From Candidatus Latescibacterota bacterium (GTDB lineage: Bacteria > Latescibacterota > UBA2968 > UBA8231), in the NCBI GenBank assembly GCA_965215195.1, contig CBDCDC010000002.1, forward strand, positions 448,001 through 512,000: 64,000 nt of DNA. The letters are read 5' to 3'. Within the stretch, counting starts at the first letter, position 1. Every line of letters starts with the position of its first letter. Positions 8,992 to 47,431 of the stretch are shown here, piece by piece. The notes beneath the pieces are model-generated. The model was given only the letters and a program-made list of their open reading frames with translations. It ran no database searches and was not told the origin of the DNA. The translations under genes were made by a program, and so were the position numbers.

Positions 8992-10398
8992 GTGATTATG
9001 CTACCGTCCACATATCCCGCGCACGCCAGCCGCGCAATTCGCCGCTTCTTGCTCATAGGCTCAATTTTCGTCGGCTGTAGTGCCGACGGCCCGGGTCCGG
9101 TCGAGACGGCCAAGCCTAATGCGCATTCGACTTGGGACATCATCCAAACGGAAATTTTCGCCGGCCAATGCGTTAGCTGCCACGCGGCCGGGACCTCGTT
9201 TGGGCGTCAGTCGGGCCTCGTGCTCACCCCGGACGTGGCCTACGAACAGCTCGTGGGTGCTGCTCCGACCAACGCGGCCGCCGCGGCCGACGGGCTGCTG
9301 CGGGTCAGCGACCTCGGGCCGGGCCTGCCCGGCCTGCTCAAGAGCTATTTGTGGGAGAAGATCAACGCGCCCGACCAGCAGCACTTCTACGGCGACCATC
9401 CCTACTACGGGGAGCTAATGCCCTTCGGGGGCGAGTCCCTGACCAACGGCGAGTTGGCTTTTATCCGCGCTTGGATCGAGGCCGGCGCACCAGAGACGGG
9501 CCACGTGGCCGACCCGGCCCTCTTGGAGGACGAGTCGCGCTACGAGGTGCCGGAGTTCAAGCCGCTAGCCGAGCCGGAAAACGGCGTCCAATTGCACTTG
9601 CCGCCTTTTGAGATACAGCCCAACTCCGAGCGCGAAATTTTTGTCGTGCATCCACTGAACAACGAAGACGATGTATTCCTAGAGCGCGTCCAGATCGCCA
9701 TGAAGTCCGGCTCGCACCACTTCCTGCTCTATACATTCCAAGACGACATACCTCCCGAGCGCATGCCGCAACCCTACGAATATCGCGAGTTGCACAATGG
9801 CGCGGGCCAGTACGTCATTGCAACCGTGCTCACGCAGTTTTACCACCTGCCCATCGCCGGCAGCCAATGGCCTTTCTTCGATTTTGCCCTGCCGCCCGGC
9901 GTGGCGATGCGGCTGCCCAAGAACGCACTGCTCGACCTCAACTCGCACTATGTCAATCGCACCAGTCAGCCCACTACCGGCGAGGTCTATACCAACTTGC
10001 ACTTTGCCGACCCGTCTGAGGTTGAGCACGAGGCGCGTCTTTTTTCTTTGAACAACCTCGAGATCTCCCTGCCGGCCGGGGCGGTGACGACCCTAGAAAA
10101 GGATTTTACCTTTTCCGAGCGGACCCACGTTGTGCAGCTCGTTTCGCACGCCCACCAGCTCATGGTAGAATTCCGGGTCGAGATGATCGGAGGAGCGCAC
10201 GACGGCGAGCTCATCTACGTCGCTTACGACTGGGAGCACCCGCCGATCCTGAGATTCGATCCCCCGCTCGTCCTAGAGCGCGGGGAGGGCTTTAGGTTAG
10301 AAGCGACCTATGACAACTGGACCGATCAAGAGGTCAATTTCGGTTTGATGTCAACGGACGAGATGATGATTCTCTTTGGGATTTCCTACGCGGATTAG
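8992..10398 (+). CDS. Cytochrome c / copper type II monooxygenase-like lipoprotein
   Basis: 'IFVGC' lipobox; 'CVSCH'; 'LMP..IRAWIEAGA'; Cu motifs 'SHHF', 'NSHY', 'SHAH', 'DEMM'. Start uncertain. Confidence 0.75.
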   Translation: MIMLPSTYPAHASRAIRRFLLIGSIFVGCSADGPGPVETAKPNAHSTWDIIQTEIFAGQCVSCHAAGTSFGRQSGLVLTPDVAYEQLVGAAPTNAAAAADGLLRVSDLGPGLPGLLKSYLWEKINAPDQQHFYGDHPYYGELMPFGGESLTNGELAFIRAWIEAGAPETGHVADPALLEDESRYEVPEFKPLAEPENGVQLHLPPFEIQPNSEREIFVVHPLNNEDDVFLERVQIAMKSGSHHFLLYTFQDDIPPERMPQPYEYRELHNGAGQYVIATVLTQFYHLPIAGSQWPFFDFALPPGVAMRLPKNALLDLNSHYVNRTSQPTTGEVYTNLHFADPSEVEHEARLFSLNNLEISLPAGAVTTLEKDFTFSERTHVVQLVSHAHQLMVEFRVEMIGGAHDGELIYVAYDWEHPPILRFDPPLVLERGEGFRLEATYDNWTDQEVNFGLMSTDEMMILFGISYAD

Positions 10399-10420: not shown

Positions 10421-11074
10421 TTAATACATGTGCGGCTGCACGGCGAGGGCGAGCGACGCTTCAATGTCCCAGATGGCCTTGGTCACCTCTTGGCCAATCA
10501 AGTCCAGCTTGCGCACCTGTTCGATGCGCCCGGTCGCGCGGGCCAGCTCGCGGCTGGCCAAGAGCTTCTCGAAAATTCCGCAGGCGTCCGCCAAGCAGAT
10601 AATGACCACGTCGCGGGGGTCGGGGATCTGATCGCTGAACAGCACCTCCATGATGCGCAGCTTGACCTCTAGCTCGGCCTTGCCATCAATGGCCGGATAG
10701 CGCCGCGAGCGAAACACCCACAGGAAGCGCCCTTCCTCGCGCGCGAGAATGCCCTTCTGCACCAGCCGGCGGAGCGCGCCCTCGCGGATGTCGTTGGCGC
10801 GTGTGGCAGCGCGTTCCAGCCAGTAACGGGTATCGTGCGTCTCGGTCGCCGCGGCAATGTCGCTCAGCATTGGGTCCAGCAGGCTATCTTGCACGGGCGT
10901 ACTATCGACGAGGATCAGCTTGTCGAGGTCGGTGTCGATGCGGTCTTCGAGTGCGAGGTCCATCAGCACCCCGCCGCCCAAGGCGTACCGCACCAGCCGG
11001 TCGGGTACTCGGGCGAAGCTCCCATCTTCATCGTCGAGTAAAAGAAGCATGATCTCTTCGGCGAATCTCAGCAT
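10421..11074 (-). CDS. GPP34 (Golgi phosphoprotein 3) family protein
   Basis: 'LRFAEEIMLLLLDDEDG', 'GGVLMDLALEDRI', 'RLVQKGIL..FLWVFRSRRYP'. Confidence 0.85.
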   Translation of the reverse strand: MLRFAEEIMLLLLDDEDGSFARVPDRLVRYALGGGVLMDLALEDRIDTDLDKLILVDSTPVQDSLLDPMLSDIAAATETHDTRYWLERAATRANDIREGALRRLVQKGILAREEGRFLWVFRSRRYPAIDGKAELEVKLRIMEVLFSDQIPDPRDVVIICLADACGIFEKLLASRELARATGRIEQVRKLDLIGQEVTKAIWDIEASLALAVQPHMY

Positions 11075-11140
11075 GGATTACCTCGTTTAATTTTGCGGTA
11101 TCTGACGAAGAATATAGACCGCGAGTGTCGCTGGGCAAGT

Positions 11141-11216
11141 TCCTACGGTTGGTTCCTTCTGGCTGTCTTGGACCAATGAGCACAACCGCACGGCTCCAGG
11201 TCAGGATCCAGCCGAT
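11141..11216 (+). pseudogene. Internal fragment of a B-type FG-GAP/FlgD paralog
   Basis: Encodes PTVGSFWLSWTNEHNRTAPGQDPAD, near-identical to segments at about 14138 and 16966. Confidence 0.85.
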
Positions 11217-11242
11217 CACGTCACGTATAGTAAGGTGTTGTC

Positions 11243-13432
11243 ATGTTGCCCATTCTCATTTGTGCATGGACGGTGCTGTTGAGTAGCCCTGCGGCGGCGA
11301 TCCGGTGGGACTTTGACGACGGGACGACGCAGGGATGGGGTGCCAAGAAACCTATTAGTTCTGGGGGGGATCATCAATTTTACCCGTTGTCTGGGGCAGT
11401 CGAAGCGGGCGTGTGGCGGATTAATGCCTTTCGTACCGACGGTCTCAGTGGCTCTGGGGCCACCTTGATTTCGCCGACGATAGGCTCTGATTCGCACCTT
11501 TTTGACCGGGTGCGGGTGCGGTTCCGCACGATCCATCCCAGTCCTACGACCGGAGCTTTACTCCTCAAATGGACCAATGAGCACAACCTCATGCACCCGG
11601 GTAGTGACCCCCTACCGGGCAGGGGTCGGTTCGCGATTCTCGCAAACGGTGCCTACGGCGAGTTCGTATATACGACCGAATGGCAAGAGTTCGAGTTTTC
11701 GTTGGTTGACATGGAGAAGAATTCCTCCGGGTATTATCCCTTATGGGAGGGGCTATTAGATGACATTCGACTGCTATTTCACTTGGAGGATATGACCGCG
11801 TCTATGATTGACCGGCTGGCTTCGACGAAGGTGGCGGCCTTGGAAGTGGATTGGATTGAGTTGACCGGGGTGGAAGAGGTGTTAGCGGGGGAATTAGCTC
11901 GGCCGCCGGTCTTCGATTTAGGCTTTGCCGGGTCGGGGGTTTTTGCACCGCCGGTATTCTATCCGATTACGCCGGACTTAGGGTTCTTTCGTCTCTTAGG
12001 TGCCGCCCAAGCAGGTGCTTTGACCGACTTAGATGAGGATGGAGACCTCGATCTGTTCTCTTTCTTTTGGGGGCTCGAAGAGAGACGAGGCGGCTGGGTT
12101 ATGGCGCACAACAACGGAGCGGGGGCTTTTGAAACCATACGCATCAAGCCAGTGGAGGGTCTAACGTATGATCCTAGGGTGTGCGTGGGCGATGTGACCG
12201 GCGATGGCCGCGACGAACTGATAATGAGTATCGAAATGTTAGACCTCGGGGTTTGGTCTATCGGAGCAGAGTTCCAGCTAGAAGAACTCGTGCAGCGACC
12301 CAATCGCCGGTTGGTGGATGTGGCCGATTGGGATGGCGACGGGCAGGTGGAGGTGTTTGCTCAACCTGTTGAGGGGGACGACTCTTTTTTGGAGGTCTGG
12401 GACCTCGCCAACGGGGAGTGGATGTTCGCCGAGTGGGCGGTTCCCGATCCGGCTTCCGGGTTGTCGTGGGCACATCAAATCGGCGATTTTACGGGCGATG
12501 GGGTGCTGAACGTGCTGTGGGGACCGCCGGCTTGGTGGGAGCCGGCGCTGTTTGAACAAGTCATCTCGCTTAGAGTGGCGGTCTTAGGGGCTGATCCTGA
12601 ACAGGGGGTGCTCTTTGAAAAGGTCATCCCGTTTTCGCTCCTCGCGGGTCGAGCGGGCGATTTTGACGGCGATGGGCACGTCGATTTACTCGCGGGCTTC
12701 CGAGAGGACTTCCAAGAGCAGCGCAAGGGCTTGGCCGTGTGGAGCAGCCTCCCCGGTGGGTTGAAACAAGAGGTGATCTATAATGAGTATCTGTTCCTGC
12801 GCTCGTCAGTGGTGGTGTGCGATCTGAATGCCGATGGGGTGGATGATTGGGTGTTTGTCGGCGGGGACTATGCGTTGGGTTTTGGCGTGTTCGTCGCATG
12901 GGGCGGCGGCTTGCATCCCACTAAAGCGGTGGAATGGTATCGCTTGTCTGGCGAGGGGGTGGATGTGGGAGCAGGGGGTGTGGCGACGGGCTTGGAGGGG
13001 AATGGCACGGCGGTGCTGCCGGGGGATGTGGATGGCGATGGCGATGTGGACTTGGTGGTGTTGGATCGGGCATTAGGGGGTGTGCATGTACTCAAGAGTC
13101 TGGTGAGTGAGCAGCCGACCGCCGTACAGACGTCGGCGGCAGCGCGGCCGGCGCAACATCGGCTGGGCGACAGCTATCCCAATCCGTTCAATCCGGCGGT
13201 GGTGATCCCCCTTGCGTTGGCGACAGACGCGGCGGAGGTGTCGCTGACGGTGTACGATGTGTTGGGTCGTCGGGTGCGGCAGGTGTGGGCTGGGCCGCTG
13301 GGGGCGGGGAGCCATCGGTTTGTGTGGGATGGCCGCGATGAGGCGGGCAAGGCGGTGGCCGCCGGGGTGTATGTCTATCAGGTCGAAGTGGACGGACAGG
13401 TGGAAGCTAAAAAGACGACCAAGCTGCCGTGA
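11243..13432 (+). CDS. Secreted FG-GAP repeat protein with N-terminal jelly-roll-like domain and C-terminal FlgD-Ig tail (copy 1, type A)
   Basis: Signal peptide; repeated DxDGDGxxD motifs; 'SYPNPFNP..VYDVLGRRVR..WDGRD..AAGVY'. Confidence 0.9.
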   Translation: MLPILICAWTVLLSSPAAAIRWDFDDGTTQGWGAKKPISSGGDHQFYPLSGAVEAGVWRINAFRTDGLSGSGATLISPTIGSDSHLFDRVRVRFRTIHPSPTTGALLLKWTNEHNLMHPGSDPLPGRGRFAILANGAYGEFVYTTEWQEFEFSLVDMEKNSSGYYPLWEGLLDDIRLLFHLEDMTASMIDRLASTKVAALEVDWIELTGVEEVLAGELARPPVFDLGFAGSGVFAPPVFYPITPDLGFFRLLGAAQAGALTDLDEDGDLDLFSFFWGLEERRGGWVMAHNNGAGAFETIRIKPVEGLTYDPRVCVGDVTGDGRDELIMSIEMLDLGVWSIGAEFQLEELVQRPNRRLVDVADWDGDGQVEVFAQPVEGDDSFLEVWDLANGEWMFAEWAVPDPASGLSWAHQIGDFTGDGVLNVLWGPPAWWEPALFEQVISLRVAVLGADPEQGVLFEKVIPFSLLAGRAGDFDGDGHVDLLAGFREDFQEQRKGLAVWSSLPGGLKQEVIYNEYLFLRSSVVVCDLNADGVDDWVFVGGDYALGFGVFVAWGGGLHPTKAVEWYRLSGEGVDVGAGGVATGLEGNGTAVLPGDVDGDGDVDLVVLDRALGGVHVLKSLVSEQPTAVQTSAAARPAQHRLGDSYPNPFNPAVVIPLALATDAAEVSLTVYDVLGRRVRQVWAGPLGAGSHRFVWDGRDEAGKAVAAGVYVYQVEVDGQVEAKKTTKLP

Positions 13433-13498
13433 GGAGATGCGCTCTTGATACGAAAAGTCGTATGCCCCCTTGCAACACTTTGTGCGAGCTCTAGGCCG

Positions 13499-13514
13499 TG
13501 GCACGAAATAGGCG
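13499..13514 (+). promoter_or_regulatory. Degenerate sigma54 promoter (TGGCAC-GAAAT-AGGCG)
   Basis: GG-N10-GC retained; paralogous to the consensus site at 16109. Confidence 0.5.
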
Positions 13515-13653
13515 TACATTCGATTGAAGACGAGGCCGATGCAGAAGAAAGGAGGTGAGGTGATACGAACTCGTACCGGTTGTTTTCCAACACTCACTCC
13601 AGTACCGTAGCGGCAGAAGCCGCGGACGTACTGGGCAACGAAGGAGACGAATT

Positions 13654-13698
13654 ATGGACAGTATTCGGGAATTCTTCGCGTCCTCCAGCGGCTTCTGA
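13654..13698 (+). pseudogene. Internally deleted copy of the Cys-rich peptide gene (MDSIREFFASSSGF*)
   Basis: Same RBS, 5' codons, stop and flanks as 16267-16542, with 231 nt missing. Confidence 0.85.
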
Positions 13699-13757
13699 GG
13701 CCTCTATCCGCTATTGAAAAATAGCTATAGGGCAGGAGATGCTCACCTCTTCTCGGC

Positions 13758-13802
13758 GTCAGGGGTTCGGCGTGCATATGGCACCGAGCCCCTGACTTTT
13801 TT
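13758..13802 (+). terminator. Intrinsic terminator-like hairpin just before FG-GAP copy 2
   Basis: GTCAGGGGTTCGG...CCGAGCCCCTGAC followed by TTTTTT. Confidence 0.7.
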
Positions 13803-13817
13803 GAAAAGGAATCGGTC

Positions 13818-15941
13818 ATGTTATATCTCGTGTTACATCTCGTGCTTGTTCTAGGCATTGCGCTATGGAGCCGTTCCGCCGAGGCGCTCACGTGGGATTT
13901 CGACGACGGAACGACCCAAGGATGGGCCGCTAAAGAAACGGGTGCCGCGGGTGGTTCGGCTGAAGTCAACCTATTTCTAGGGCAGGTCCAAGACGGCGTG
14001 TGGACGATTGATGTGTCGCCCTCGGTGGCCGGGGAGAAGTATCCCACGCCGAGTGTCCAAGTGATTTCGCCTACCATCGGCTACGAGTCTCGCTTGTTCG
14101 ACCGGATCCGGGTCCGATTTCGCACCGTCCATCATCGTCCTACGGTCGGTTCCTTCTGGCTGTCTTGGACCAATGAGCACAACCGCATGGCTCCAGGTCT
14201 TGACCCAGAGAAACGAAGCAGCAGCCGGTTTTCGCTGCATGGACAAGCTGGCTTTGTCTATACCACCGAGTGGCAGGAAGTGGCGTTGACACTGCCCGTA
14301 TCAGACGGGGAGGTCGCCCCGGGCGACCGGGAGGTCTGGGAGGGGCTTTTACGGGATATTCGGCTGCATTTTAGCTTGGATTGGGGCGAGCGCGATGTGC
14401 CCCGGTCAGCGGCGGAGGTGGTCGGGGGGTTGGAGATTGACTGGATTGAGTTGACCGGCGTGGAAGAGGTATTAGCGGGGGAATTAGCCCCGCCATCGGT
14501 AGAGTATTTCCGCTTTGAGGGAGCCGGACTTTTCGCCCCGCCGATCTTCTCGCCGATTGCGCCGGGGTTAGGGGGCTTTATAGCCGAAGGGGCTGGCGTC
14601 TTGACGGACTTAGATAGAGACGGCGATCTCGACCTATTCTCTACTTGGCGTGATAGAGGATCCGGCTCAAATCCTTTCATAAGCGGCTGGGTCATGGCGC
14701 TCAGTGATGGACGAGGGGTCTTTGAAACGGTGCATACCGAGGCGACCGGATGGGTGACTTACTGGGATGTGCGGAGCGGCGATGTGACCGGCGATGGCCA
14801 AGACGAGATCGTGCTAGCCCACTCAGACATAGCGGTTTGGTCTATCGATCCAGATTTTCAGATTGAGGTACTCACTCAGCTACTTGACCACCAACTCGTA
14901 GGCTTGATAGATTGGGATGGGGACGGTGCGATCGAGTTATTTTCAGACCATATAGTGGCTGGAGGAAGAGCTTTAGAGGTCTGGGAGGTTGAGCAGGGGG
15001 AGTGGACGGGCACCCGGTTAGCGGTGGCCGAAAACCACGCGCCCTCTCGGATGGGCGACTTTACGGGCGATGGGCAATTGGATGTGCTGTGGGTTCCGTT
15101 ATTCGGCCAAGCAAATACGTGGATCGTGGCGGGCTTAGAAGCCGCGCCTAGGGAGGGCAACATCGTCTTTGAATCTGATGCGGGGACCCCTCTTCCGCTT
15201 TTAAGTGCGGGCGATTTTGATGGCGATGGGCAGGCGGACTTACTCACGGCGCTTGAATACAACTCCTATGAACGGCGCAAGGGCTTGCTTCTATGGAGAG
15301 GCCAATCAACGGGTGGCGTGGAGAAGAAGGTGATCTATGATGATCGGCTATTTCTGCGCTCGCCGGTAGTGGTGCGCGACCTCAACGGGGACGGGGTAGA
15401 TGATTGGGCGTTTGTCGGAGGGGATCGCGCCTCGGGGATCGGGGTGTTTGTCGAATGGGGTGGGGGCGCACATCCGGCCAAGGAGGTGGAACGGCATCGT
15501 TTAGTCGGCGATGGGGTACAGGTGCTGCCGGGAGATGTGGATGGCGACGGCGATGTGGACTTGGTCGTGTTAAATCCCCTCTTAGGCGGTGTGCAAGTGT
15601 TGAAGAGTTCGGCGAGGGAACAGATGACCGCGGTGCTGACAGCGGCGGCAGCGCGGCCAGCGCAACATCGGCTCGGCGACAGCTATCCCAATCCGTTCAA
15701 TCCGACGGTGGTGATCCCCCTTGAGTTGGCGACGGATGCGGTGGGGGTGTCGCTGACGGTGTACGACGTGTTGGGTCGTCGGGTGCGGCAGGTGTGGCAG
15801 GGGCCGCTGGGGGCGGGGAGCCATCGGTTTGTGTGGGATGGCCGCGACGCGGCGGGCAAGGCGGTGGCCGCCGGGGTGTATGTCTATCAGGTCGAAGTGG
15901 ACGGACAGGTGGAAGCTAAAAAGACGACCAAGCTGCCGTGA
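13818..15941 (+). CDS. Secreted FG-GAP/FlgD-Ig protein (copy 2, type B)
   Basis: Same architecture as copy 1; signal peptide ends in AEA. Confidence 0.9.
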   Translation: MLYLVLHLVLVLGIALWSRSAEALTWDFDDGTTQGWAAKETGAAGGSAEVNLFLGQVQDGVWTIDVSPSVAGEKYPTPSVQVISPTIGYESRLFDRIRVRFRTVHHRPTVGSFWLSWTNEHNRMAPGLDPEKRSSSRFSLHGQAGFVYTTEWQEVALTLPVSDGEVAPGDREVWEGLLRDIRLHFSLDWGERDVPRSAAEVVGGLEIDWIELTGVEEVLAGELAPPSVEYFRFEGAGLFAPPIFSPIAPGLGGFIAEGAGVLTDLDRDGDLDLFSTWRDRGSGSNPFISGWVMALSDGRGVFETVHTEATGWVTYWDVRSGDVTGDGQDEIVLAHSDIAVWSIDPDFQIEVLTQLLDHQLVGLIDWDGDGAIELFSDHIVAGGRALEVWEVEQGEWTGTRLAVAENHAPSRMGDFTGDGQLDVLWVPLFGQANTWIVAGLEAAPREGNIVFESDAGTPLPLLSAGDFDGDGQADLLTALEYNSYERRKGLLLWRGQSTGGVEKKVIYDDRLFLRSPVVVRDLNGDGVDDWAFVGGDRASGIGVFVEWGGGAHPAKEVERHRLVGDGVQVLPGDVDGDGDVDLVVLNPLLGGVQVLKSSAREQMTAVLTAAAARPAQHRLGDSYPNPFNPTVVIPLELATDAVGVSLTVYDVLGRRVRQVWQGPLGAGSHRFVWDGRDAAGKAVAAGVYVYQVEVDGQVEAKKTTKLP

Positions 15942-15984
15942 GGAATAGTAGGGATAGGTTTGAAACTTTAGGTCATGGAAAAAT

Positions 15985-16020
15985 GGCCCCACGGCGATGC
16001 TTTTTGCCGTGGGGCCTTTT
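15985..16020 (+). terminator. Intrinsic terminator after copy 2
   Basis: GGCCCCACGGC...GCCGTGGGGCC followed by TTTT. Confidence 0.8.
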
Positions 16021-16057
16021 GTGCGTGGTGATTAGACGCTTTAATCTTTGCGGTAAG

Positions 16058-16085
16058 AATACCCCGCTGCTTGCGGCGGGGTATT
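16058..16085. repeat. Palindromic hairpin (REP-like or IS200/IS605-end-like)
   Basis: AATACCCCGCTGC-TT-GCGGCGGGGTATT. Confidence 0.5.
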
Positions 16086-16108
16086 TTATTTGTATAGGGC
16101 TTAATTTT

Positions 16109-16124
16109 TGGCACGAAACTTGCA
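16109..16124 (+). promoter_or_regulatory. sigma54 (-24/-12) promoter
   Basis: TGGCAC-GAAAC-TTGCA, a full consensus match, preceded by an AT-rich tract. Confidence 0.85.
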
Positions 16125-16266
16125 TTATACCGTCATTGAAGGCGAGGCCGATACAGACGAAAGGAGGTGAGGAGGTACGAACTCGTATCGGTTGTTTTCC
16201 AACACTCATTCCAGTACCGTAGCGGCACCGAGCCGTGGACGTACTAGACAACTAAGGAGATGAATT

Positions 16267-16542
16267 ATGGACAGTATTCGGGAATTCTTCACGTCCTCGA
16301 GCGGCTTGGCTCCGGCTCGGCGGGGGCTGGGGCTCGGGTGGGTCATCAGTGCCCTCGCGGGGATCGCCGTCCTGCTCGGGGCCAGAGGGGCCGAAGCCAA
16401 TCCTTGTCCGACCTCTCGTGATTGCAGTTTCGACGAAGATTGCCCTTCGGCCACACCGATCGAGTGCTGCACAACATGGAAATCGCCAGCTAAGAATGGT
16501 GGATGCACGATCACTGGCTATTCCTGCGTCTGCACCCTCTGA
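16267..16542 (+). CDS. Small secreted cysteine-rich peptide precursor (44-aa leader + 47-aa core with 8 Cys)
   Basis: AAGGAG RBS; RR + hydrophobic stretch + AEA cleavage motif; core NPCPTSRDCSFDEDCPSATPIECCTTWKSPAKNGGCTITGYSCVCTL; a paralogous remnant confirms start and stop. Confidence 0.85.
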   Translation: MDSIREFFTSSSGLAPARRGLGLGWVISALAGIAVLLGARGAEANPCPTSRDCSFDEDCPSATPIECCTTWKSPAKNGGCTITGYSCVCTL

Positions 16543-16602
16543 GGCCCTATCAGCTATTAAGAAATAGCTGTAGGGCAGGAGGTGTTCACCGCTTCTCTGC
16601 GT

Positions 16603-16641
16603 CAGGGGCTCGGCGTAGGGTGCCGATCCCCTGCCTTTCTT
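16603..16641 (+). terminator. Terminator-like hairpin just before FG-GAP copy 3
   Basis: CAGGGGCTCGGC...GCCGATCCCCTG followed by CCTTTCTT. Confidence 0.6.
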
Positions 16642-16657
16642 GTAAAGGACATCGGCC

Positions 16658-18826
16658 ATGTTACATCTCGTGCTTCTTCTAGGCATTGCGCTATGGAACC
16701 GTTCCGTCGAGGCGCTCACGTGGCATTTCGACGACGGGACGACGCAAGGATGGGCCGCCAAAGAAGCTGCTGCATGGGGTGGTTCGGCTGAAGTCAACCT
16801 GTTTCCGGGGCAGGTCCAAGACGGCGTGTGGACGATTGATGTGTCACCGTCCGTGGCCGGCAAGAAGTATCCCCAGCCGATTGTCCAAGTGATTTCGCCT
16901 ACCATCGGCTACGATTCGAGCTTGTTCGACCGGGTCCGAGTCCGGCTTCGCACCATCCATCATCGTCCTACGGTCGGTTCCTTTGGGCTATCTTGGACCA
17001 ATGAGCACAACCGCACGGCTCCAGGTCGAGATCCAGCCGATTTGTTTAGCAACCGGTTTTCGCTGATCGGACAAGCCGGCTTCGTCTATACCACCGAATG
17101 GCAGGAAGTGGAGGTAACGCTGCCCGTATCGGACGGAGAGGTCGCCCCGGGCGACCGGGAGGTCTGGGAGGGGCTTTTGAGGGATATTCGGCTGAGTTTT
17201 AGCTTGGATTGGGGCGAGCGCGATATGCCCCGGTCGGCGGCAGAGGTGGTCGGATGGTTGGAGATCGACTGGATCGAGTTGACCGGCGTGGAAGAGGTGT
17301 TAGCGGGGGAATTAGCCCCGCCGTCGGTTGAGTATTTCCGCTTTGAGGGGATCGGGCTTTTTGCCCCGCCGGTCTTCTCTCCTATTATGCCGGAGTTAGG
17401 GCACTTCTTGGTCTCAGGAGGGGATCGGGTTGGCGGCTTGACGGACTTGGATGAGGACGGCGATCTCGACCTGTTCTTCACGTGGAATGGTGTCCGCCAT
17501 GAATCGGCGAATCCCTTCGTAAGCGGCTGGGTCATGGCGCTCAATGATGGGCGAGGGGCCTTTGAAACGGTGCACACCGAGGAAAAGAGCGGAGAGGGGA
17601 TCCAGAATCTGCGCGTCGGCGATTTGACCGGCGATGGCCAAGACGAGATTGCGACTGAAGATAGAAAGAGTTGGGAGATAACGGTCTGGTCTATTGGGCC
17701 GGACCTCCAAATGGAGGTCCTCACGCAGATAAAGGGTCGCTGGCTGGTGGACATGGTGGATTGGGATGGCGACGGCATGGTCGAACTGTTTACAATAGAC
17801 TTTACGTTTACGGTGGAAGAAGGAGCGTTAGAGGTCTGGGAGGCAGGAGCGTTAGAGGTCTGGGAGGTCGAACAGGGGGTGTGGGCGGTCGCACAGGTGG
17901 CGGTGGCCGAAAACCATTGGCCCGCTCGGATAGGCGACTTTACCGGCGATGAGAAGTTGGACGTGCTGTGGGAACCGAGAGACCAGACGGGCACATGGAT
18001 GGTTGCACACTTGGGCGACGAGCCGGAGGCGGGCGACATCGTCTTTGAAGCCGAAGCCGATACGGCGGATATTCTTTTTTACCTTTTACAAGTGGGCGAT
18101 TTTGATGGCGATGGGCAGGTGGACCTGCTTACGCCGCTCGAACACACCCCTTGGGAACTGCTCAAGGGCCTTGCCGTACGAAGCAGCCGATTAGGGGGCG
18201 GTGTAGATGAGACAGTGCTTTATGATGAACGTTTGTTTCTGCGCTCGCCGGTAGTGGTGCGCGACCTGAACGGGGACGGGGTGGACGATTGGGCGTTTGT
18301 CGGCGGAGATCGCGCCTCGGGGATCGGGGTGTTTATCGAATGGGGTGGCGGCGCGCATCCGGCCAAGGCGGTGGAGCGGCATCGCTTGGACGGCGATGGA
18401 GTACAGGTGCTGCCGGGAGATATCGATGGCGACGGCGACCTCGACTTAGTCGTGTTAAATCCCCTCTTAGGCGGTGTGCAAGTGTTGAAGAGTTCGGTGG
18501 GCGAGCAGAGGACCGCGGTGCTGACAGCGGCGGTAGCGCGGCTGGTGCAGCATCGGCTCGGCGACAGCTATCCCAATCCGTTCAATCCGACGGTCGTGCT
18601 GCCCCTTGAGTTGGCGACGGACGCGACGGGGGTGTCGCTGGCCGTGTACGATGTGTTGGGTCGTCGGGTGCGGCAAGTGTGGCAAGGGCCGCTGCGGGCG
18701 GGGAGCCATCGGTTTGTGTGGGATGGCCGCGACGAAGAGGACAAGAGCGTGGCTGCCGGAGTGTACGTCTATCAGGTCGAAGTGGACGGACAGGTGGAAG
18801 CTAAAAAGACGACGAAGCTGCCGTGA
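16658..18826 (+). CDS. Secreted FG-GAP/FlgD-Ig protein (copy 3, type B)
   Basis: Closest to copy 2; internal GALEVWE duplication. Confidence 0.9.
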   Translation: MLHLVLLLGIALWNRSVEALTWHFDDGTTQGWAAKEAAAWGGSAEVNLFPGQVQDGVWTIDVSPSVAGKKYPQPIVQVISPTIGYDSSLFDRVRVRLRTIHHRPTVGSFGLSWTNEHNRTAPGRDPADLFSNRFSLIGQAGFVYTTEWQEVEVTLPVSDGEVAPGDREVWEGLLRDIRLSFSLDWGERDMPRSAAEVVGWLEIDWIELTGVEEVLAGELAPPSVEYFRFEGIGLFAPPVFSPIMPELGHFLVSGGDRVGGLTDLDEDGDLDLFFTWNGVRHESANPFVSGWVMALNDGRGAFETVHTEEKSGEGIQNLRVGDLTGDGQDEIATEDRKSWEITVWSIGPDLQMEVLTQIKGRWLVDMVDWDGDGMVELFTIDFTFTVEEGALEVWEAGALEVWEVEQGVWAVAQVAVAENHWPARIGDFTGDEKLDVLWEPRDQTGTWMVAHLGDEPEAGDIVFEAEADTADILFYLLQVGDFDGDGQVDLLTPLEHTPWELLKGLAVRSSRLGGGVDETVLYDERLFLRSPVVVRDLNGDGVDDWAFVGGDRASGIGVFIEWGGGAHPAKAVERHRLDGDGVQVLPGDIDGDGDLDLVVLNPLLGGVQVLKSSVGEQRTAVLTAAVARLVQHRLGDSYPNPFNPTVVLPLELATDATGVSLAVYDVLGRRVRQVWQGPLRAGSHRFVWDGRDEEDKSVAAGVYVYQVEVDGQVEAKKTTKLP
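17821..17868 (+). repeat. 24-nt in-frame tandem duplication
   Basis: AGGAGCGTTAGAGGTCTGGGAGG(C/T) x2. Confidence 0.9.
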
Positions 18827-18944
18827 GGGATAAGTCCATTCCGTGGGATTCCACGGAAAATCATATGTTCCCTTGCAACGACGGATGAAGCAACGAAGAA
18901 TTGTTTCTGTACCATTTGAGCCAAGGGACCGATTGAAAACCGCT

Positions 18945-18990
18945 AGGCAGGGTCTCGGCGTGTGCAGCGTGCCGATCCCCTGCCTTTCTT
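18945..18990 (+). terminator. Terminator-like hairpin just before FG-GAP copy 4
   Basis: AGGCAGGGTCTCGGC...GCCGATCCCCTGCCT followed by TTCTT; the 3' arm and RBS are identical to those before copy 3. Confidence 0.6.
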
Positions 18991-19006
18991 GTAAAGGACA
19001 TCGGCC

Positions 19007-21199
19007 ATGTTATATCTCGCGCTTCTTCTAAGCACTGCGCTATGGAGCCGTTCCGCCGAGGCGATCAAGTGGGATTTTGACGACGGGACGACGCAGGGAT
19101 GGGGAGCCAAAAAATCTTTTAGGTCCGGGGGTGAGCATCAATTTTTCCCGTTGTCTGGGGTAGTCGAAGCGGGCGTGTGGCGGATCAATCTATTTCGCAT
19201 CGACGGTCTCAGTGAAGCAGGGGCCGACTTGATTTCTCCGACGATAGGCTCTGATTCGCACCTGTTCGACCGGGTGCGGGTGCGGTTCCGCTCGGTCCAT
19301 CATAGTCCTACGACCGGAGCCTTGTTCCTCCGATGGACCAATGAGCACAACCTCATGTTCCCGGGTAAGGACCCCCTACTGCAAAGGGGTCGGTTTTCTC
19401 TTCCCGCAAAGGGCTTCTATGGCGAGTGGGTATATACGACCGAATGGCAGGAATTCGAGTTTTCGTTGGTTGACATGGAGAAGAATTACTTTGGGTATTA
19501 TCCCTTATGGGAGGGTCTATTAGATGATATTCGACTGACGTTTGGCTTGGAGGATATGACCGCGTCTATGACCGACCGGCTAGCCTCGACGAAGGTGGCG
19601 GGCTTGGAAGTGGATTGGATTGAGTTGACCGGTGTGGAGGAGGTGTTACAGGGCGAATTACCTCGGCCGCCGGTGTTTGATGTTGGCTTTGCAGGGTCTA
19701 GGATTTTTGCGCCGCCAATATTCTATCCGATCGTGCCGGGATTAGGGTCATTTCGCCTCTTCGGCGACTCCCAAGAAGGTATTTTGACTGACTTAGATGA
19801 GGATGGAGACCTTGATCTGTTCTCATTCTGGTTAGGGGGGGGGGCGGAGGGCTGGGTCATGGCGTGCAACAACGGTGCGGGGGCTTTTGAAACGGTACGC
19901 GTCGAGCCGGAGGAGGATCTAACGCGACCGGAAGATCGTAGGGTGTGCGTCGGCGATGTGACGGGCGATGGCCGCGACGAAATGGTGATGAGTATCAAAA
20001 TGTGGGATCTCGGGGTTTGGTCTATGGGAGCAGAGTTCCAGATGGAGGCCCTCGTGCAGCGGTCCAATCGCCGGTTGGTGGATGTAGCCGATTGGGACGG
20101 CGATGGGCAGATGGAGGTATTTGCCCAACCGGTGGACGAGGACGACTCTTTTTTGGAGGTGTGGGACCTTGTCAACGGGGTATGGACGTTCGCCGAGTGG
20201 GCGGTGCCCGATCCGGCTTCCGGGTTGTCGTGGGCACATCAAATCGGCGATTTTACGGGCGATGGGGGGCTGGACGTGCTGTGGGGGCCGGAGGTTTTTG
20301 TGGGGGGGAGGGAATTTTTTGAACAAGCGATCTCATTTAGAGTGGGGGTCTTAGGGGCTGATCCTGCGCAGGGGGTGCTGTTTGAAGAGGTCATCCCGTT
20401 TTCTCTCCTCGCGGGTCGAGCCGGCGATTTTGATGGCGATGGGCAGGTGGACTTACTCGCGGGCTTCCGGGAGGACCGCTCTGAGCAGCGCAAGGGCCTA
20501 GCCGTGTGGAGCAGCCTCTCTGATGGATTAAAACAAGAGGCGATCTATGATGCGTCTCTGTTTCTACGCTCGTCAGTGGTGGTGTGCGACCTGAATGGCG
20601 ATGGGGTGGATGATTGGGTGTTTGTCGGCGGGGACTATGCGTTGGGTTTTGGCGTGTTCGTCGAATGGGGTGGCGGCTTGCATCCGTCCAAATCGGTGGA
20701 ATGGCATCGCTTGTCTGGTGAGGGAGTGGACGTGGGAGCAGGGGAGGTGGCGACGGGCTTAGAGGGGAATGGCGTCAGGGTGCTTCCTGGGGATGTGGAT
20801 GGCGACGGGGATGTCGATTTGGTGGTGTTGGATCGGGCATTAGGGGGCGTACATGTGCTCAAGAGTTCGGTGAGTGAGCAGCCGACCGCCGTGATGACAG
20901 CGGCGGCAGCGCGGCCAGCGCAACATCGGCTCGGCGACAGCTATCCCAATCCGTTCAATCCGGCTGTAGTGATCCCCCTCGACTTGGCGACGGACGCGGT
21001 GGAGGTGTCGCTGACGGTGTACGATGTGTTGGGTCGTCGGGTGCGGCAGGTGTGGCAAGGGCCGCTGGGGGCGGGGAGTCATCGGTTTGGGTGGGATGGC
21101 CGCGGTGAGGCGGGCAAGGCGGTGGCCGCTGGCGTGTACGTCTATCAGGTCGAAATCGACGGGCGAGTGGAAGCGAAAAAGACGACCAAGCTGCCGTGA
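19007..21199 (+). CDS. Secreted FG-GAP/FlgD-Ig protein (copy 4, type A body with B-type leader)
   Basis: Mature region closest to copy 1; signal peptide resembles copies 2 and 3. Confidence 0.9.
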   Translation: MLYLALLLSTALWSRSAEAIKWDFDDGTTQGWGAKKSFRSGGEHQFFPLSGVVEAGVWRINLFRIDGLSEAGADLISPTIGSDSHLFDRVRVRFRSVHHSPTTGALFLRWTNEHNLMFPGKDPLLQRGRFSLPAKGFYGEWVYTTEWQEFEFSLVDMEKNYFGYYPLWEGLLDDIRLTFGLEDMTASMTDRLASTKVAGLEVDWIELTGVEEVLQGELPRPPVFDVGFAGSRIFAPPIFYPIVPGLGSFRLFGDSQEGILTDLDEDGDLDLFSFWLGGGAEGWVMACNNGAGAFETVRVEPEEDLTRPEDRRVCVGDVTGDGRDEMVMSIKMWDLGVWSMGAEFQMEALVQRSNRRLVDVADWDGDGQMEVFAQPVDEDDSFLEVWDLVNGVWTFAEWAVPDPASGLSWAHQIGDFTGDGGLDVLWGPEVFVGGREFFEQAISFRVGVLGADPAQGVLFEEVIPFSLLAGRAGDFDGDGQVDLLAGFREDRSEQRKGLAVWSSLSDGLKQEAIYDASLFLRSSVVVCDLNGDGVDDWVFVGGDYALGFGVFVEWGGGLHPSKSVEWHRLSGEGVDVGAGEVATGLEGNGVRVLPGDVDGDGDVDLVVLDRALGGVHVLKSSVSEQPTAVMTAAAARPAQHRLGDSYPNPFNPAVVIPLDLATDAVEVSLTVYDVLGRRVRQVWQGPLGAGSHRFGWDGRGEAGKAVAAGVYVYQVEIDGRVEAKKTTKLP

Positions 21200-21254
21200 G
21201 GCATGGGGCTATCGAGCGGCCTTGGGACGGGTGTCGGCATGGGGCCGAGCGCAT

Positions 21255-22070
21255 TCATCCTACGGGAGAGCCGGTTCCACTGCTGCGGTGACGCAGCCAT
21301 TCCACTGTAAACAGAACCAAGACGGCAAACGCGATGAGAAAGGTCGCCACCGCTAGGATGGTGGGGCTGATTTGCTCGCGGATGCCCGCCCACATCTGTC
21401 GCGGAATAGTCCGCTGCTCCAAGCCGCCCATGAACAGCACCACCACGACCTCGTCGAAGGACGCGGCAAAGGCGAATAACCCGCCAGACGCCACCCCAGG
21501 TGCGATGAGCGGCAACTGCACGCGCCAGAAGCTGTGCAGCGGACCCGCGCCGAGGCTGGCGGCAGCCCGCATCAAGTTCCGGTCGAAGCCCGACAACGTG
21601 GCGGTTACGGTAATCACCACAAACGGGACCCCGAGCACGGCGTGGGCGAGGATTATGCCGAGGTGGGTCTGCGCCAAGCCGAGGCTGGAGTAAAAGAAGA
21701 ACATCCCCACCGCGGCGATGACGACCGGCGTGATCAGCGGCGAGATCAACAGCCCCATCACAGCCCTCCGAGCGGGCATGGCCGAATTCGCCAGTCCGAG
21801 GGCCGCGAGGGTGCCAAGCGAGGTCGCGAGCAGGGTCGCCGAGACGCCGATGACCAAGCTGTTGACCAAGGCGCGAGTCCATGCGCCGTCTGCGATGATG
21901 CTGCGATACCAACGCAGTGAATACGCCTCCGGGTCGAGGCGCAGCATGCCCTCGGTAAACGTGAAATACGGCTCGGCGTTGAAGCTGAGTGGCACGATCA
22001 CCAAAATCGGCGCGACCAAGAAGACAAACGCCGCCGTGCAGAACGCGAGATAGACCCACCGCCCAAACAT
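21255..22070 (-). CDS. Polyamine-type ABC transporter permease (PotC-like)
   Basis: Start reassigned to MFGRWVY; 'AAASLGA' EAA loop, 'SFDEVVV'. Confidence 0.88.
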   Translation of the reverse strand: MFGRWVYLAFCTAAFVFLVAPILVIVPLSFNAEPYFTFTEGMLRLDPEAYSLRWYRSIIADGAWTRALVNSLVIGVSATLLATSLGTLAALGLANSAMPARRAVMGLLISPLITPVVIAAVGMFFFYSSLGLAQTHLGIILAHAVLGVPFVVITVTATLSGFDRNLMRAAASLGAGPLHSFWRVQLPLIAPGVASGGLFAFAASFDEVVVVLFMGGLEQRTIPRQMWAGIREQISPTILAVATFLIAFAVLVLFTVEWLRHRSSGTGSPVG

Positions 22071-44884: not shown

Positions 44885-47431
44885 TCAGGAAGTTTCGTAG
44901 GGTCCAAGAAATCGGTTCCCATCGAAATGGATGATATGCGTTGGTGTTTCCGCAACCCATACCTCAGTTTCCCAAGAGATCTCAGTTATATACTTTCCCA
45001 TTGTCGTGCGATCCGGAAAGGCCGTAACATATACTAAACCGGGTATAGCCTTGGCAAATAACGTAGAAAGTTCACGGTGTCTTTTGCTATTTACAGGCCC
45101 ATGGGTTGTCACAGCCTCAATTAAAAAAAGCCAATTTTTCTCCTGATAATAGAGCACTACGTCCGGCATTTTGCCATGTTCATCTACCTCAACTCCCAGT
45201 TCCAACAACCTGCTTTGTTGCAAGTAGCCGATTTTGCTTCCCGTATCGCCCACGTAAATCACTTTGCTTCCTGGGGCATATCGAGGAGCGAATTCGACGA
45301 TAATATCTTTAATCAGCTTGCTGTGTGTACCAGGAGTGAGAGCAATTTCGTAGTCCTTTTCAACCTCTACGGGGATCATCTGCATTCTTCGCTGCATCGC
45401 ATAAAGTTGAGCTAGGGTTTCTCGTTCTTCTAAATATGAAGAAAGAGTTTGGTTCCACTGGTCTGTTCCATAGGTGAGAATGACTGCAAAAATTTCCGCA
45501 CTGATCTGATAACATGCTTTGGGACTATTTACGGGACGACTTGGTTCGTCTGGGTTATACAGTGCGATGCCCGCTTCGACAAATTGGTGCATGGTTTGAC
45601 GGCGGAAAGTTTCACGAGTATTGGGCGCGTACTCTTTGCCGTAGAAAGCCCGACAAAATTCCATGATAGGGGTGATACCCATCAGTGGTTGTTCCAGTTC
45701 TTGCCAGCTTCCATCTGGTTTGAGGTTCAAAATGGCAAGCAGTGTCAGTGCGGAACGTTCGTTTTGCTGGCCTCTGGGAAGGCCGAAGTTCCGCAAGAGA
45801 TTTAGTGCATCATCTATTTTCTGCTGCGCTTGGATTGGATCAATCATGGATTTCTTTCCCATTCTACTGACTTCTTGGTTGACCAGATGATCGATATCTT
45901 TTTGTAACGGAATCTTATCTTTGGCCAGAGAACCAAATTTGGCTAAGGTCTCTAGGCTTGGATAATGAATTGCCCTGAGATCTGCAGAATTGACTTGTGT
46001 GTGGCCATTAAATTGGCGGAAGTATTTATCGACTAGGGTGCAATTTAAATAGACGGCCAGCCCCAAGGCTATCTCTTTAGATAATCCCTGCTTTTGTCGA
46101 TGGAATACGTTTAGGTGATTTTCAAAGCCGACTTTACGGGCAGGTAGGGATGAATCGTAGATTGCTGCTACAATGCGCCTTCGTTCTTCTTTGGCAGTAA
46201 AGCGTTTGGTCACCACATAGTGGCCATTATTAGACCAAAGCCACTTTTCAGAATCAGATGTAATAGTAATAGCATTGGGCTTCTTCCCATCCTTGGGCCA
46301 TGTCAGTCCATCGGCATCAAAATGGGCAGGATAAAGCAAGGGTGCCGTACCTGGCTCGGGTTTCTGGCGCAAATGTTCTTTCAGTCTAAAATCTACTAGG
46401 GGACCAGTGGATATTTCGATGCCTAAATCTTCTAGCGCATAATTAAATACTGAAATCCGATCTACTACATGCTGTTCAAAATCAGTAGTGGCTATATGGA
46501 TAAATTTCTCTGGATCGTCGGGTTTGACAACGCTGGTATAGGGGGCCGTCCTCTGGGTCATATCCTCTACGATCATTTCTCCGCACTCCTTGGAGAATTC
46601 TACACTATGACTTGAGGTGATTCTGACAGTTCCTAAGGCAGCTCCTTTTACCGCATGGAAGATTATATTTTCCTGCAGTACCTCATCGTCCTTAAATGCA
46701 CGAGCACGAGATTCAAATACATGAAAACGCTTGATCGTCATCTGTTCGAGTAAAAATCTGCGAAAAGATTTGAAGTACGGACCATTACAGAACGAACGAG
46801 GTACGATGGCTACAAGCTCACCCCTTGGTCTTAGCATCTCGATAGCGATTGTTAGAAATCCTGCATATAAATTTGAGATTTCTACACCCACGTCTTGCAG
46901 CCATTTTCTATGTGGAGAATTGGAACGGATTTTTTTATAGGGAGGGTTCATGATTACATGCGTGAAGGATTCCTTAGCTGGAGGACACTGAAATAGGTCA
47001 TTTGCCAGTTGTTTCGCTCCTTCTTCGATAAAATCTCCAATTTCAATTCTCTCTTGAAGGTCGATTCCGTTGTCTTGGCACAGCCGGCGACAGTGGGTAA
47101 GCGTAGATTGTAGATACTCAATCATCGTCGGCTCTAATTCGTAAGCCTTGATATAAATCTTCTGGAGGTGAGTAGTACGAGAGCAAAATTCCTCAACAAA
47201 AGCGGCTGTTAAGGAACCAACTCCGGCACCGGCATCCAAAAGGCGGATCTGACCGTACTCGACAGCGTCAAAAAATGAGGCCATAAACCGAGCAATGGGG
47301 GCAGAAGTCAGAAACTGCCCCATTTCCCAACGTTTCTTGGGAACTAATTTCCGGGATATATCCAAGCGATAGCTTTCTGCTAGTTCGGTTGCAGATGCAG
47401 TCTCGCTTTGACTTAAGTTGATACTATTCAT
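44885..47431 (-). CDS. Fused N6-adenine methyltransferase + BsuBI/PstI-family type II restriction endonuclease
   Basis: 'GQFLT', 'LLDAGAGVG', 'NPPY', 'PRSFCNG'; C-terminal 'YAPNTRETFRRQTMHQF', 'HGKMPDVV..IEAVTTHGP', 'ISWETEVW'. Confidence 0.9.
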   Translation of the reverse strand: MNSINLSQSETASATELAESYRLDISRKLVPKKRWEMGQFLTSAPIARFMASFFDAVEYGQIRLLDAGAGVGSLTAAFVEEFCSRTTHLQKIYIKAYELEPTMIEYLQSTLTHCRRLCQDNGIDLQERIEIGDFIEEGAKQLANDLFQCPPAKESFTHVIMNPPYKKIRSNSPHRKWLQDVGVEISNLYAGFLTIAIEMLRPRGELVAIVPRSFCNGPYFKSFRRFLLEQMTIKRFHVFESRARAFKDDEVLQENIIFHAVKGAALGTVRITSSHSVEFSKECGEMIVEDMTQRTAPYTSVVKPDDPEKFIHIATTDFEQHVVDRISVFNYALEDLGIEISTGPLVDFRLKEHLRQKPEPGTAPLLYPAHFDADGLTWPKDGKKPNAITITSDSEKWLWSNNGHYVVTKRFTAKEERRRIVAAIYDSSLPARKVGFENHLNVFHRQKQGLSKEIALGLAVYLNCTLVDKYFRQFNGHTQVNSADLRAIHYPSLETLAKFGSLAKDKIPLQKDIDHLVNQEVSRMGKKSMIDPIQAQQKIDDALNLLRNFGLPRGQQNERSALTLLAILNLKPDGSWQELEQPLMGITPIMEFCRAFYGKEYAPNTRETFRRQTMHQFVEAGIALYNPDEPSRPVNSPKACYQISAEIFAVILTYGTDQWNQTLSSYLEERETLAQLYAMQRRMQMIPVEVEKDYEIALTPGTHSKLIKDIIVEFAPRYAPGSKVIYVGDTGSKIGYLQQSRLLELGVEVDEHGKMPDVVLYYQEKNWLFLIEAVTTHGPVNSKRHRELSTLFAKAIPGLVYVTAFPDRTTMGKYITEISWETEVWVAETPTHIIHFDGNRFLGPYETS

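Follow-up and report, generated by a model that had tools for sequence, protein, structure and literature searches.

Layout of the locus

We analysed a window of 64,000 nt from the genome of a Candidatus Latescibacterota bacterium (positions 448001-512000 of contig C2 in a two-contig assembly of 6.13 Mb), in which a sequence-only reading had picked out a repeated, sigma54-driven unit that pairs a small secreted cysteine-rich peptide with a large FG-GAP protein. The four secreted paralogs of about 720 residues that it described on one strand are indeed there (copies 1 to 4, Table 1). The unit that contains copy 3 (unit 2, 16109-18826) is also built as described, with a sigma54 site, a leader, a Shine-Dalgarno sequence, an open reading frame (ORF) with eight cysteines, two hairpins and the gene of the large protein, which we call the partner.

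The proposal that this unit is present twice holds for unit 2 and fails for unit 1, the one with copy 2, where the promoter is degenerate and the peptide gene is cut to a stump. When the two units are aligned, 231 nt of unit 2 are missing from unit 1, and the hydrophobic segment and the cysteine core are lost with them. It is because of this deletion that the peptide reading frame of unit 1 ends so early. With a degenerate promoter and no cysteine-rich peptide gene in unit 1, the window contains a single intact cassette.

The other two copies have no peptide gene at all. None is found upstream of copy 1, where there is also no sigma54 motif within 900 nt. The 180-nt spacer in front of copy 4 holds neither a peptide gene nor a promoter and retains only the second hairpin, and copy 4 may be transcribed by read-through from copy 3. 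The tandem intrinsic terminators that follow copy 2 would insulate the second cassette from the preceding gene; related loci have an equivalent hairpin and T-run at the same position with a different stem sequence. The hairpin at 16603-16633 is weakly terminator-like and is kept 5' of copies 2, 3 and 4. A short remnant of a fifth paralog 5' of copy 1 is, to judge from its similarity to copy 3, a scar of recombination or deletion.

Table 1. Features of the peptide/partner array. Positions are those of the window unless a contig is named.
Feature	Position	Strand	Description
Remnant of a fifth paralog (N-domain piece)	11142-11216	+	25 residues; tblastn 92% identity to copy 3 residues 104-128; N-domain hidden Markov model (HMM) E 7e-10
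Paralog 1	11243-13432	+	ORF, 729 aa; Pfam FG-GAP_3 and FlgD_ig; signal peptide, β-sandwich like that of a carbohydrate-binding module (CBM), FG-GAP propeller, tail of the type IX secretion system (T9SS) type
Unit 1 sigma54-like site	13499-13514	+	-24 element intact; -12 element degenerate (TGGCACGAAATAGGCG), AGGCG instead of TTGCA
Unit 1 peptide-gene stump	13654-13698	+	ATG at 13654, 14 codons, stop; leader HMM E 0.02 only
Paralog 2	13818-15941	+	ORF, 707 aa; 74-77% identity to paralog 3
Tandem intrinsic terminators (two)	15985-16016, 16056-16087	+	13- and 14-bp stems, then T-rich tails
Sigma54-type promoter	16109-16124	+	TGGCACG-N4-TTGCA, 158 nt 5' of the peptide ATG
Structured 5' leader	16125-16266	+	About 140 nt; AAGGAG Shine-Dalgarno sequence before the peptide ATG
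Peptide gene	16267-16542	+	91-aa ORF; signal-like N-terminus; 8 Cys within the last 47 residues
Hairpins between peptide and partner	16552-16569; 16603-16633 then CCTTTCTT	+	
Paralog 3, partner of the intact peptide	16658-18826	+	ORF, 722 aa
Paralog 4	19007-21199	+	ORF, 730 aa; 52-59% identity to paralog 3
Long-form peptide genes (examples)	C2:2150745-2152346	-	
	C2:2181930-2182751	-	
	C2:2778107-2779988	+	

The cysteine-rich peptide

The intact peptide gene encodes a 44-residue, near-invariant extended signal or leader ending in A-x-A, followed by a 47-residue core with eight cysteines that ends in C-x-C-T-x. Leader residues F7, S10, S12, G13 and W25 are invariant across all subfamilies, and the A-x-A at the end of the leader is found in at least 90% of the sequences. 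A Tat signal was considered on account of the R-R pair in the window's own leader, but it was dropped because most relatives have R-Q there or lack the pair.

A database search gave 156 proteins related to the peptide at E ≤ 0.01, all of them unnamed and without a Pfam domain. A broader profile recovered 110 representative clusters among 1.84 billion proteins, and the ten that were looked up are all unnamed as well. There was no match to the peptide in Pfam or NCBIfam (E ≤ 0.01) or among Protein Data Bank (PDB) sequences, nor any similarity to toxin, bacteriocin or immunity families. In the ESM Atlas, the nearest clusters consist of hypothetical proteins of about 90 residues whose known members are mostly from Candidatus Poribacteria; their score of 0.84 is below the level at which it is meaningful, which makes them a lead only.

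The evolution of the peptide was examined with 44 distinct short peptide genes (946 gene pairs). Across this set the leader is nearly invariant and the core varies in length, in sequence and even in its cysteine framework. In 29 pairs the synonymous divergence (dS) of the core was unsaturated (below 0.3). The ratio of non-synonymous to synonymous divergence (dN/dS) of the core exceeded 1 in 25 of these and reached 6.3, and that of the leader was below 1 in all 29. By this measure the leader is under purifying selection, and the core behaves as the diversifying peptide that had been proposed from the window alone. There were also 29 pairs with a leader dS below 0.2, and in 16 of them the core dS was greater than 1 or saturated. 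Such a discordance between the two halves of one gene points to mosaic histories, in which leaders were homogenised or cores exchanged. A diversity-generating retroelement was considered as a possible origin of the variability; no reverse transcriptase was seen among the annotated ORFs of the clusters, and no search aimed at such elements was made.

A near-invariant N-terminal region, a hypervariable cysteine core, dN/dS above 1 and mosaic divergence of leader and core are also features of the conotoxin superfamilies and of bacteriocin precursors and those of ribosomally synthesised and post-translationally modified peptides (RiPPs). No sequence or enzyme links the peptide to any of them, however, and the analogy is one of evolutionary pattern only. 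The NVEALA proteins of Bacteroidota, small, secreted, multi-copy proteins encoded near β-propeller proteins, provide a second, loose analogy. The peptide has no NCBIfam or Pfam match at E ≤ 0.01 that would connect it to NVEALA, as far as these libraries contain an NVEALA model.

Architecture and predicted sorting of the partner

Each paralog consists of a short Sec-type signal peptide, an N-terminal domain of about 190 residues (N-domain), FG-GAP repeats and a C-terminal FlgD_ig-like domain. The repeats and the FlgD-Ig tail named in the sequence-only reading were recovered by Pfam in all four copies (FG-GAP_3 with E 6e-18 to 5e-25 and FlgD_ig with E 1e-11 to 1e-13, above cut-off). FG-GAP_3 matches four stretches per copy, FG-GAP is above cut-off and the repeats contain D-x-D-x-D-G loops. 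The entropy profile likewise agrees with that reading in having conserved tails and variable loops between the repeats.

An AlphaFold2 model of copy 3, calculated from a 32-sequence alignment (predicted local distance difference test score, pLDDT, 73.5), divides the protein into a β-sandwich (residues ~20-212), a seven-blade FG-GAP propeller (~240-610) and an Ig-like T9SS tail (~645-722). Foldseek matched this model to galactose oxidase, CRTAC1 and integrin alpha headpieces, with a template modelling (TM) score of ~0.3 and an identity of 11-15%. The partner therefore shares an architecture with the FG-GAP propellers of integrin alpha and CRTAC1 and with the three-domain plan of galactose oxidase (β-sandwich, propeller, Ig-like domain), but at such values the resemblance is architectural, and a ligand bound on the top of the propeller is an analogy. 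When modelled alone (pLDDT 78.2), the N-domain has its best PDB matches among CBM86, CBM4, CBM28 and CBM22 (E 3e-5 to 1e-4, target-normalised TM 0.44-0.59). Given these matches, the earlier label of a jelly-roll-like domain is right, and the domain is predicted to be a CBM-like β-sandwich. No Pfam CBM family matched the paralogs at E ≤ 0.01, and the likeness to CBMs is at the level of the fold only.

The Por_Secre_tail family was below the Pfam cut-off in the paralogs. In the two copies tested against the NCBIfam model of the T9SS type A sorting domain (TIGR04183), copies 3 and 4, the scores were 29.8 and 29.2 bits with a cut-off of 23. Our search for the type IX machinery covered PorU and SprA, and homologs of both were found in the genome: PorU (NF033707) at C2:1739599-1742757 with 628.6 bits (cut-off 420) and SprA (TIGR04189) at C1:253047-258179, above cut-off. 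The last ~80 residues of the partner thus resemble those of known T9SS type-A cargo in a host that has PorU and SprA homologs, and, as the partner has a type-A C-terminal sorting domain, the type IX machinery would carry it. Among T9SS cargo, neither a one-to-one pairing with the gene of a small hypervariable peptide nor control by a sigma54 cassette is known to have been described. More than 100 other ORFs of the genome share the FlgD_ig/type-A sorting tail (tblastn to residues ~620-722), which suggests a very large type IX secretome.

Pairing of the peptide with its partner

The adjacency of the peptide gene and an N-domain homolog had been named beforehand as the observation on which the proposal could fail. 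We fetched 41 loci around peptide genes from other Latescibacterota records, and the pairing is kept in 38 of them: in 37, an N-domain encoded on the same strand begins 385-624 nt beyond the peptide ATG, and in one it lies behind a second peptide gene. The remaining three have none.

The window's own genome gives a similar picture. It contains 12 intact genes with the leader of the peptide, seven of them short (~87-100 residues) and five long. All seven short genes are located directly 5' of a paralog, and they fall into two subfamilies that are only 30-40% identical. The five long forms (256-301 residues; examples in Table 1) are single proteins that join the leader to two Cys-rich cores and to the sorting tail that the paralogs also have. 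They resemble a peptide/partner pair contained in one chain, and the fusion of cores to a sorting tail suggests that the cores are destined for the type IX route.

The distribution of the two families was examined in 61 genomes. In the window's genus, 25 of 30 genomes have the N-domain and 20 of 30 the peptide; among 30 genomes from elsewhere, the corresponding numbers are 0 and 1. Within the genus the peptide never occurs without the N-domain. With the broader profile, the peptide was detected in 33 of 168 Latescibacterota genomes, belonging to 7 of 49 genera. The partner paralogs are thus found only in the window's genus, and the peptide is expanded there and patchy in other Latescibacterota.

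Predicted peptide-partner complex

The complex was predicted for one cognate pair, namely residues 20-615 of copy 3 and residues 45-91 of the peptide, using our own alignments. The complex scores were 0.33, 0.62 and 0.83 (median 0.62), whereas all three controls gave 0.00. The contacts agreed to at least 64% between runs, and the pLDDT of the partner was 66 or higher. Of 157 solved complexes, 116 come up to the mark against which we read this score, as do 2 of 215 mismatched pairs, a calibration that is rough here since our own alignments were used. The model supports binding of the peptide core to the partner but does not show it.

In the predicted complex, the C-terminal C-x-C-T stretch of the peptide pairs with partner residues 38-44. 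The remaining contacts are made by one face of the β-sandwich (the alternating strand positions 71/73/75, 108/110/112 and 133/135/137, and residues 180/182/185) and by the loops at the top of the propeller. The same face of the β-sandwich is the ligand-binding site of type-B CBMs. The N-domain thus resembles type-B CBMs (CBM4, CBM22, CBM28 and CBM86) both in its fold and in having its predicted contacts on one face of a sheet, but it is unrelated to them in sequence, and its predicted ligand is a peptide and not a glycan.

A comparison of column entropies in the alignment of 37 peptide-linked partners shows that the 40 contact residues have a mean of 2.33 bits, whereas the remaining 556 positions average 1.05 bits (p 1e-13 in a Mann-Whitney test). 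The excess is also found, with p 1e-7 in both cases, when only strand residues (15 contact residues vs 279 others) or only coil residues (24 vs 256) are compared. Among seven pairs of recently diverged cassettes, 97 of 264 contact positions differ, compared with 351 of 3640 other positions. The sequence-only reading had proposed that the large protein is the cognate binder of the peptide, and in computation this proposal held up: the predicted contacts coincide with the most variable positions of the partner.

Promoter and leader RNA

The site in front of the intact peptide gene matches the sigma54 consensus TGGCACG-N4-TTGCW perfectly. A strict form of the motif occurs at 18 sites in the genome, three of which are located 158-160 nt 5' of peptide start codons, and the presence of a sigma54 promoter before the peptide is more than chance. 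Of 43 regions in front of peptide genes, at least 30 have the motif, at a distance of 137-179 nt; where it is absent, the region comes immediately after the stop codon of the preceding paralog in a tandem array. The genome has an rpoN gene (426 bits, cut-off 277). Both the conservation of the motif and the presence of rpoN are consistent with the sigma54 control that had been suggested.

The genome has 18 Sigma54_activat matches, none of which is in the window. Three activators of 1021-1054 residues, composed of a Reg_prop propeller, Y_Y_Y, a Sigma54_activat AAA+ domain and HTH_8, adjoin the three large clusters of paralogs described below. An activator gene homologous to these adjoins a peptide gene in at least 13 related genomes, with its sensor-coding part ending ~1.3-1.7 kb from the peptide start.

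Two helices recur in the leader RNA. A GGCCG/CGGTY helix encloses a Shine-Dalgarno-like GAAAGGAGGTGA, situated ~110 nt before the true start of the peptide, together with a small hairpin. A long hairpin (CCAGUAC...GUACUGG) lies immediately 5' of the real Shine-Dalgarno sequence AAGGAG. RNAalifold retained the 5-bp helix and the long hairpin in an alignment of 32 leaders (17 pairs, 5 of them with compensatory changes), and single-sequence folds concur on both. The leader is therefore a conserved and probably structured 5' element, and it could be an undescribed cis-regulatory RNA. A scan of 10500-21500 with Rfam gave no family at gathering level. A Pyrobac-1 match obtained when scanning at E ≤ 1 was rejected as it is sub-threshold and lies within a coding region. 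An upstream ORF behind the Shine-Dalgarno-like sequence was also considered and dropped, because its frame is not conserved in the subfamily and meets an immediate stop in unit 1.

The second peptide subfamily (C2:2365200-2365310 and 2768000-2768140) has a different conserved leader, again with a Shine-Dalgarno-like sequence. Behind this sequence comes an upstream ORF of ~27 codons with a GTG or ATG start that ends over, or just past, the peptide start codon. Such an arrangement may serve translational coupling or attenuation.

Putative processing genes at the large clusters

The ~26 full-length paralogs of the genome are distributed over four clusters and a number of singletons. The three large clusters (C2:2136000-2200000, 2352000-2397000 and 2755000-2783000) contain a sigma54 activator, an A24-type membrane protein of ~380 residues, two thioredoxin-fold proteins and a weakly matching FMN_bind-like protein, and the clusters also have DUF4159, GT2, transglutaminase-like and TPR genes repeated between the paralogs. 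The DUF4159 proteins (~448 residues) are present in at least nine copies, and the transglutaminase-like proteins have 824-832 residues. An IS630-like element truncates one of the thioredoxin-like genes of the clusters, and an IS256-like transposase splits another in a related genome (G060). Since the window lacks all of these cluster genes, among them the activator, the A24-like gene and the thioredoxin-like genes, its cassette is a satellite copy. The earlier statement that no modifying enzyme is adjacent to the peptide is hence correct for the window but not for the other loci of the peptide family in the genome, where an A24-type peptidase and thioredoxin-like proteins are encoded.

The A24-like proteins pass the Pfam Peptidase_A24 model with 35.0, 30.7 and 27.5 bits (cut-off 26.5), and in one homolog the C-terminal domain of archaeal A24 enzymes is weakly matched as well. 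Three homologs that share 32-40% identity retain the two catalytic Asp motifs, of which the second is G-x-G-D. The gene is found in 17 of the 20 peptide-positive and in none of the 10 peptide-negative genomes of the genus, always within ~1-10 kb of peptide genes. Outside the genus it was found only in two genomes, G051 and G060. There, one to three peptide genes in tandem, with a related leader and no FG-GAP partner, come immediately after thioredoxin-like and A24-like genes. The putative processing module thus travels with the peptide and not with the partner. The conserved n-region of the leader may be the handle for the A24-like peptidase, and the thioredoxin-like proteins may serve the formation of disulfides. 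The enzyme resembles A24 prepilin and preflagellin peptidases in its Pfam match, in its Asp motifs and in having candidate substrates with an invariant Gly before a hydrophobic stretch. It differs from them in its size of ~380 residues, and its candidate substrates lack a Glu at +5 and a pilin fold and end in A-x-A, with no pilus machinery nearby.

Interpretation

The reading that we put forward is that the cassette encodes a sigma54-controlled, diversifying pair of a peptide and its binder that is sent to the cell surface, and that it is a satellite of a system expanded in one genus of Latescibacterota; we hold the chances of its being right and of its being wrong to be about equal. It builds on what was observed or computed here: the conserved order of the genes, the sigma54 promoter motif, the domain architecture of the proteins, the pattern of selection and the way in which the families occur together across genomes. 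The sigma54 promoter, probably switched on by the large activator with its β-propeller sensor and AAA+ domain, would drive the leader RNA, the precursor and the partner. The precursor, with its almost invariant 44-residue leader or signal and a hypervariable core of 45-50 residues that would form three to four disulfides, would be exported to the periplasm. There the leader would be processed and the disulfides formed, probably with the help of the A24-type GxGD peptidase and the thioredoxin-like proteins. The mature core would then dock in a pocket bounded by the CBM-like β-sandwich on one side and by the top of the FG-GAP propeller on the other, and the type IX machinery would carry the partner, and conceivably the bound peptide with it, to the surface. 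For the short peptides, which have no tail of their own, binding to a tailed partner would provide a way of export. As core and pocket both appear to evolve fast, each genome would come to hold many different peptide/binder pairs. We infer the A24 processing, the co-export and the biological role of the pair: it might provide for variable recognition or adhesion at the surface, or it might present a toxic or signalling peptide.

A number of observations weigh against this reading. Binding rests on model confidence for one cognate pair. When overall divergence is controlled for, the distance between peptide cores and the distance between interfaces have a partial rank correlation of 0.14 (Mantel-like), which barely exceeds what shared ancestry would be expected to give, and an external ligand, instead of the peptide, might be what drives the variability of the loops on the ligand face. 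About 19 of the ~26 full-length paralogs, including copies 1 and 4, have no peptide gene, and five genomes of the genus have N-domain paralogs with no peptide detected; a partner that mostly occurs alone does not need the peptide in general. Conversely, two genomes of another family of the class have the peptide family without an FG-GAP partner. The genomes compared are close kin, so that the counts overstate their independence. At the locus itself, the terminator-like hairpin separates the peptide gene from that of the partner, and the covariation term of the leader RNA is weak (-0.92 in RNAalifold). The conserved A-x-A suggests cleavage by an ordinary signal peptidase, which makes the part played by the A24-like enzyme less certain. 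Finally, we know of no precedent for type IX co-export of a bound peptide.

Several of these points would be explained if the two products were co-regulated but independent secreted proteins, which became neighbours by block duplication, do not bind each other and have each an external target of its own. This would account for the paralogs without peptides and for the peptides without paralogs in another family, for the sorting tail that the long forms bear themselves and for the weak correlation between peptide and interface. Chance can also produce passes among neighbours, as 7 of 44 blind neighbours passed the complex test. On the other hand, mere neighbours would hardly be expected to keep their order in all but three of the loci, across subfamilies as divergent as the two described above, to give a complex score well separated from the controls, or to have a predicted contact surface made up of the most variable residues of the partner. 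We therefore regard independence as unlikely.

A conserved leader and a hypervariable core with dN/dS above 1 are typical of toxins and bacteriocins. The core might accordingly be a bacteriocin- or toxin-like molecule with antimicrobial or host-directed activity, which the propeller protein neutralises or delivers and which is diversified by an arms race. The selection pattern of the peptide fits this, as do the one-to-one pairing of the genes, the predicted complex and a MacB/FtsX-type permease that follows the peptide genes at one distant locus. It is opposed by the lack of similarity to toxin, bacteriocin and immunity families, by the many partners that have no peptide and by the lack of killing-related genes nearby in the window. 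In addition, a surface-sorted partner of 720 residues is unlike the small membrane proteins that provide immunity. With these objections, a toxin is a quite improbable explanation.

The co-occurrence of an A24-type peptidase that has both Asp motifs is so tight that a pilin-like, membrane-anchored subunit has to be considered too. In such a scheme a class III signal would be cut by the peptidase after the invariant Gly, the hydrophobic stretch would be kept as an anchor or polymerisation helix, the Cys-rich head would be displayed, and the FG-GAP protein would be an adhesin or tip partner. The invariant S-x-S-G in the n-region followed by a hydrophobic stretch is what such a signal would look like, and hypervariable heads are typical of pilins. 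Nevertheless, the peptide lacks a Glu at +5 and matches none of the pilin families of Pfam, ~11 mostly non-hydrophobic residues separate Gly13 from the hydrophobic segment, that segment is followed by the conserved A-x-A, and no genes for a pilus assembly ATPase, platform or secretin were annotated in the clusters, all of which makes a pilin very unlikely. We attach next to no probability to a RiPP precursor, whose leader would recruit enzymes that alter the Cys-rich core beyond disulfides: the leader/core layout fits, as do the protease and redox genes at the peptide family's other loci, but there is no class-defining enzyme in the window or beside any copy examined, where only the A24-like, thioredoxin-fold and FMN_bind-like proteins were seen, with GT2, transglutaminase-like and DUF4159 genes further off, and the leader holds a signal-like hydrophobic stretch and an A-x-A.

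A bolder version of the peptide/binder reading can be formulated, which we judge somewhat unlikely. It would be a lock-and-key diversity system, in which dozens of disulfide-rich peptides are loaded in the periplasm into the matching hypervariable pockets of an integrin-like surface protein and ride the type IX route with it. They would be matured by a GxGD protease recruited to non-pilin substrates, under the control of a dedicated sigma54 activator, and would be used for self/non-self or host recognition or as a repertoire of displayed toxins.

We found no description of the peptide/partner system in the literature or in the family libraries searched, and the available passages of a paper on Latescibacterota of sponges (PMC12993501) do not mention the genes. 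On this comparison the arrangement appears to match no described system that we could find. If the peptide/binder reading is correct, it would add a bacterial route to variable surfaces in which a small hypervariable ligand and a co-diversifying receptor or carrier are multiplied as one unit, possibly also a family of non-pilin substrates for A24-type peptidases and a case of hitch-hiking export through the type IX system. The uncultured Latescibacterota gain concrete candidates for surface or interaction molecules. Structural studies and protein engineering could profit from the peptide cores, which form a natural collection of small disulfide-rich scaffolds that each come with a predicted binder. 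Four new annotations stand even without binding, namely the peptide family with its representative clusters, the module of peptidase and thioredoxin genes dedicated to it, the structured leader behind the sigma54 promoter and the expansion of the paralogs within the one genus.

Neighbouring genes

Just 5' of the array, the plus strand encodes a 468-residue ORF (8992-10398) with a signal-like N-terminus and a C-x-x-C-H motif, which has no Pfam match above cut-off. Next after it, on the opposite strand, is a gene of the GPP34 family (10421-11074). Farther along the window, an 847-residue ORF on the minus strand (44885-47431) combines an Eco57I/N6_Mtase N6-adenine methylase region with a BsuBI/PstI-type endonuclease (helix-turn-helix and nuclease domains). 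It sits in the stretch of the window with the lowest GC content (0.48-0.52 vs ~0.62), a location that suggests a single-chain restriction-modification enzyme which was probably obtained by horizontal transfer.

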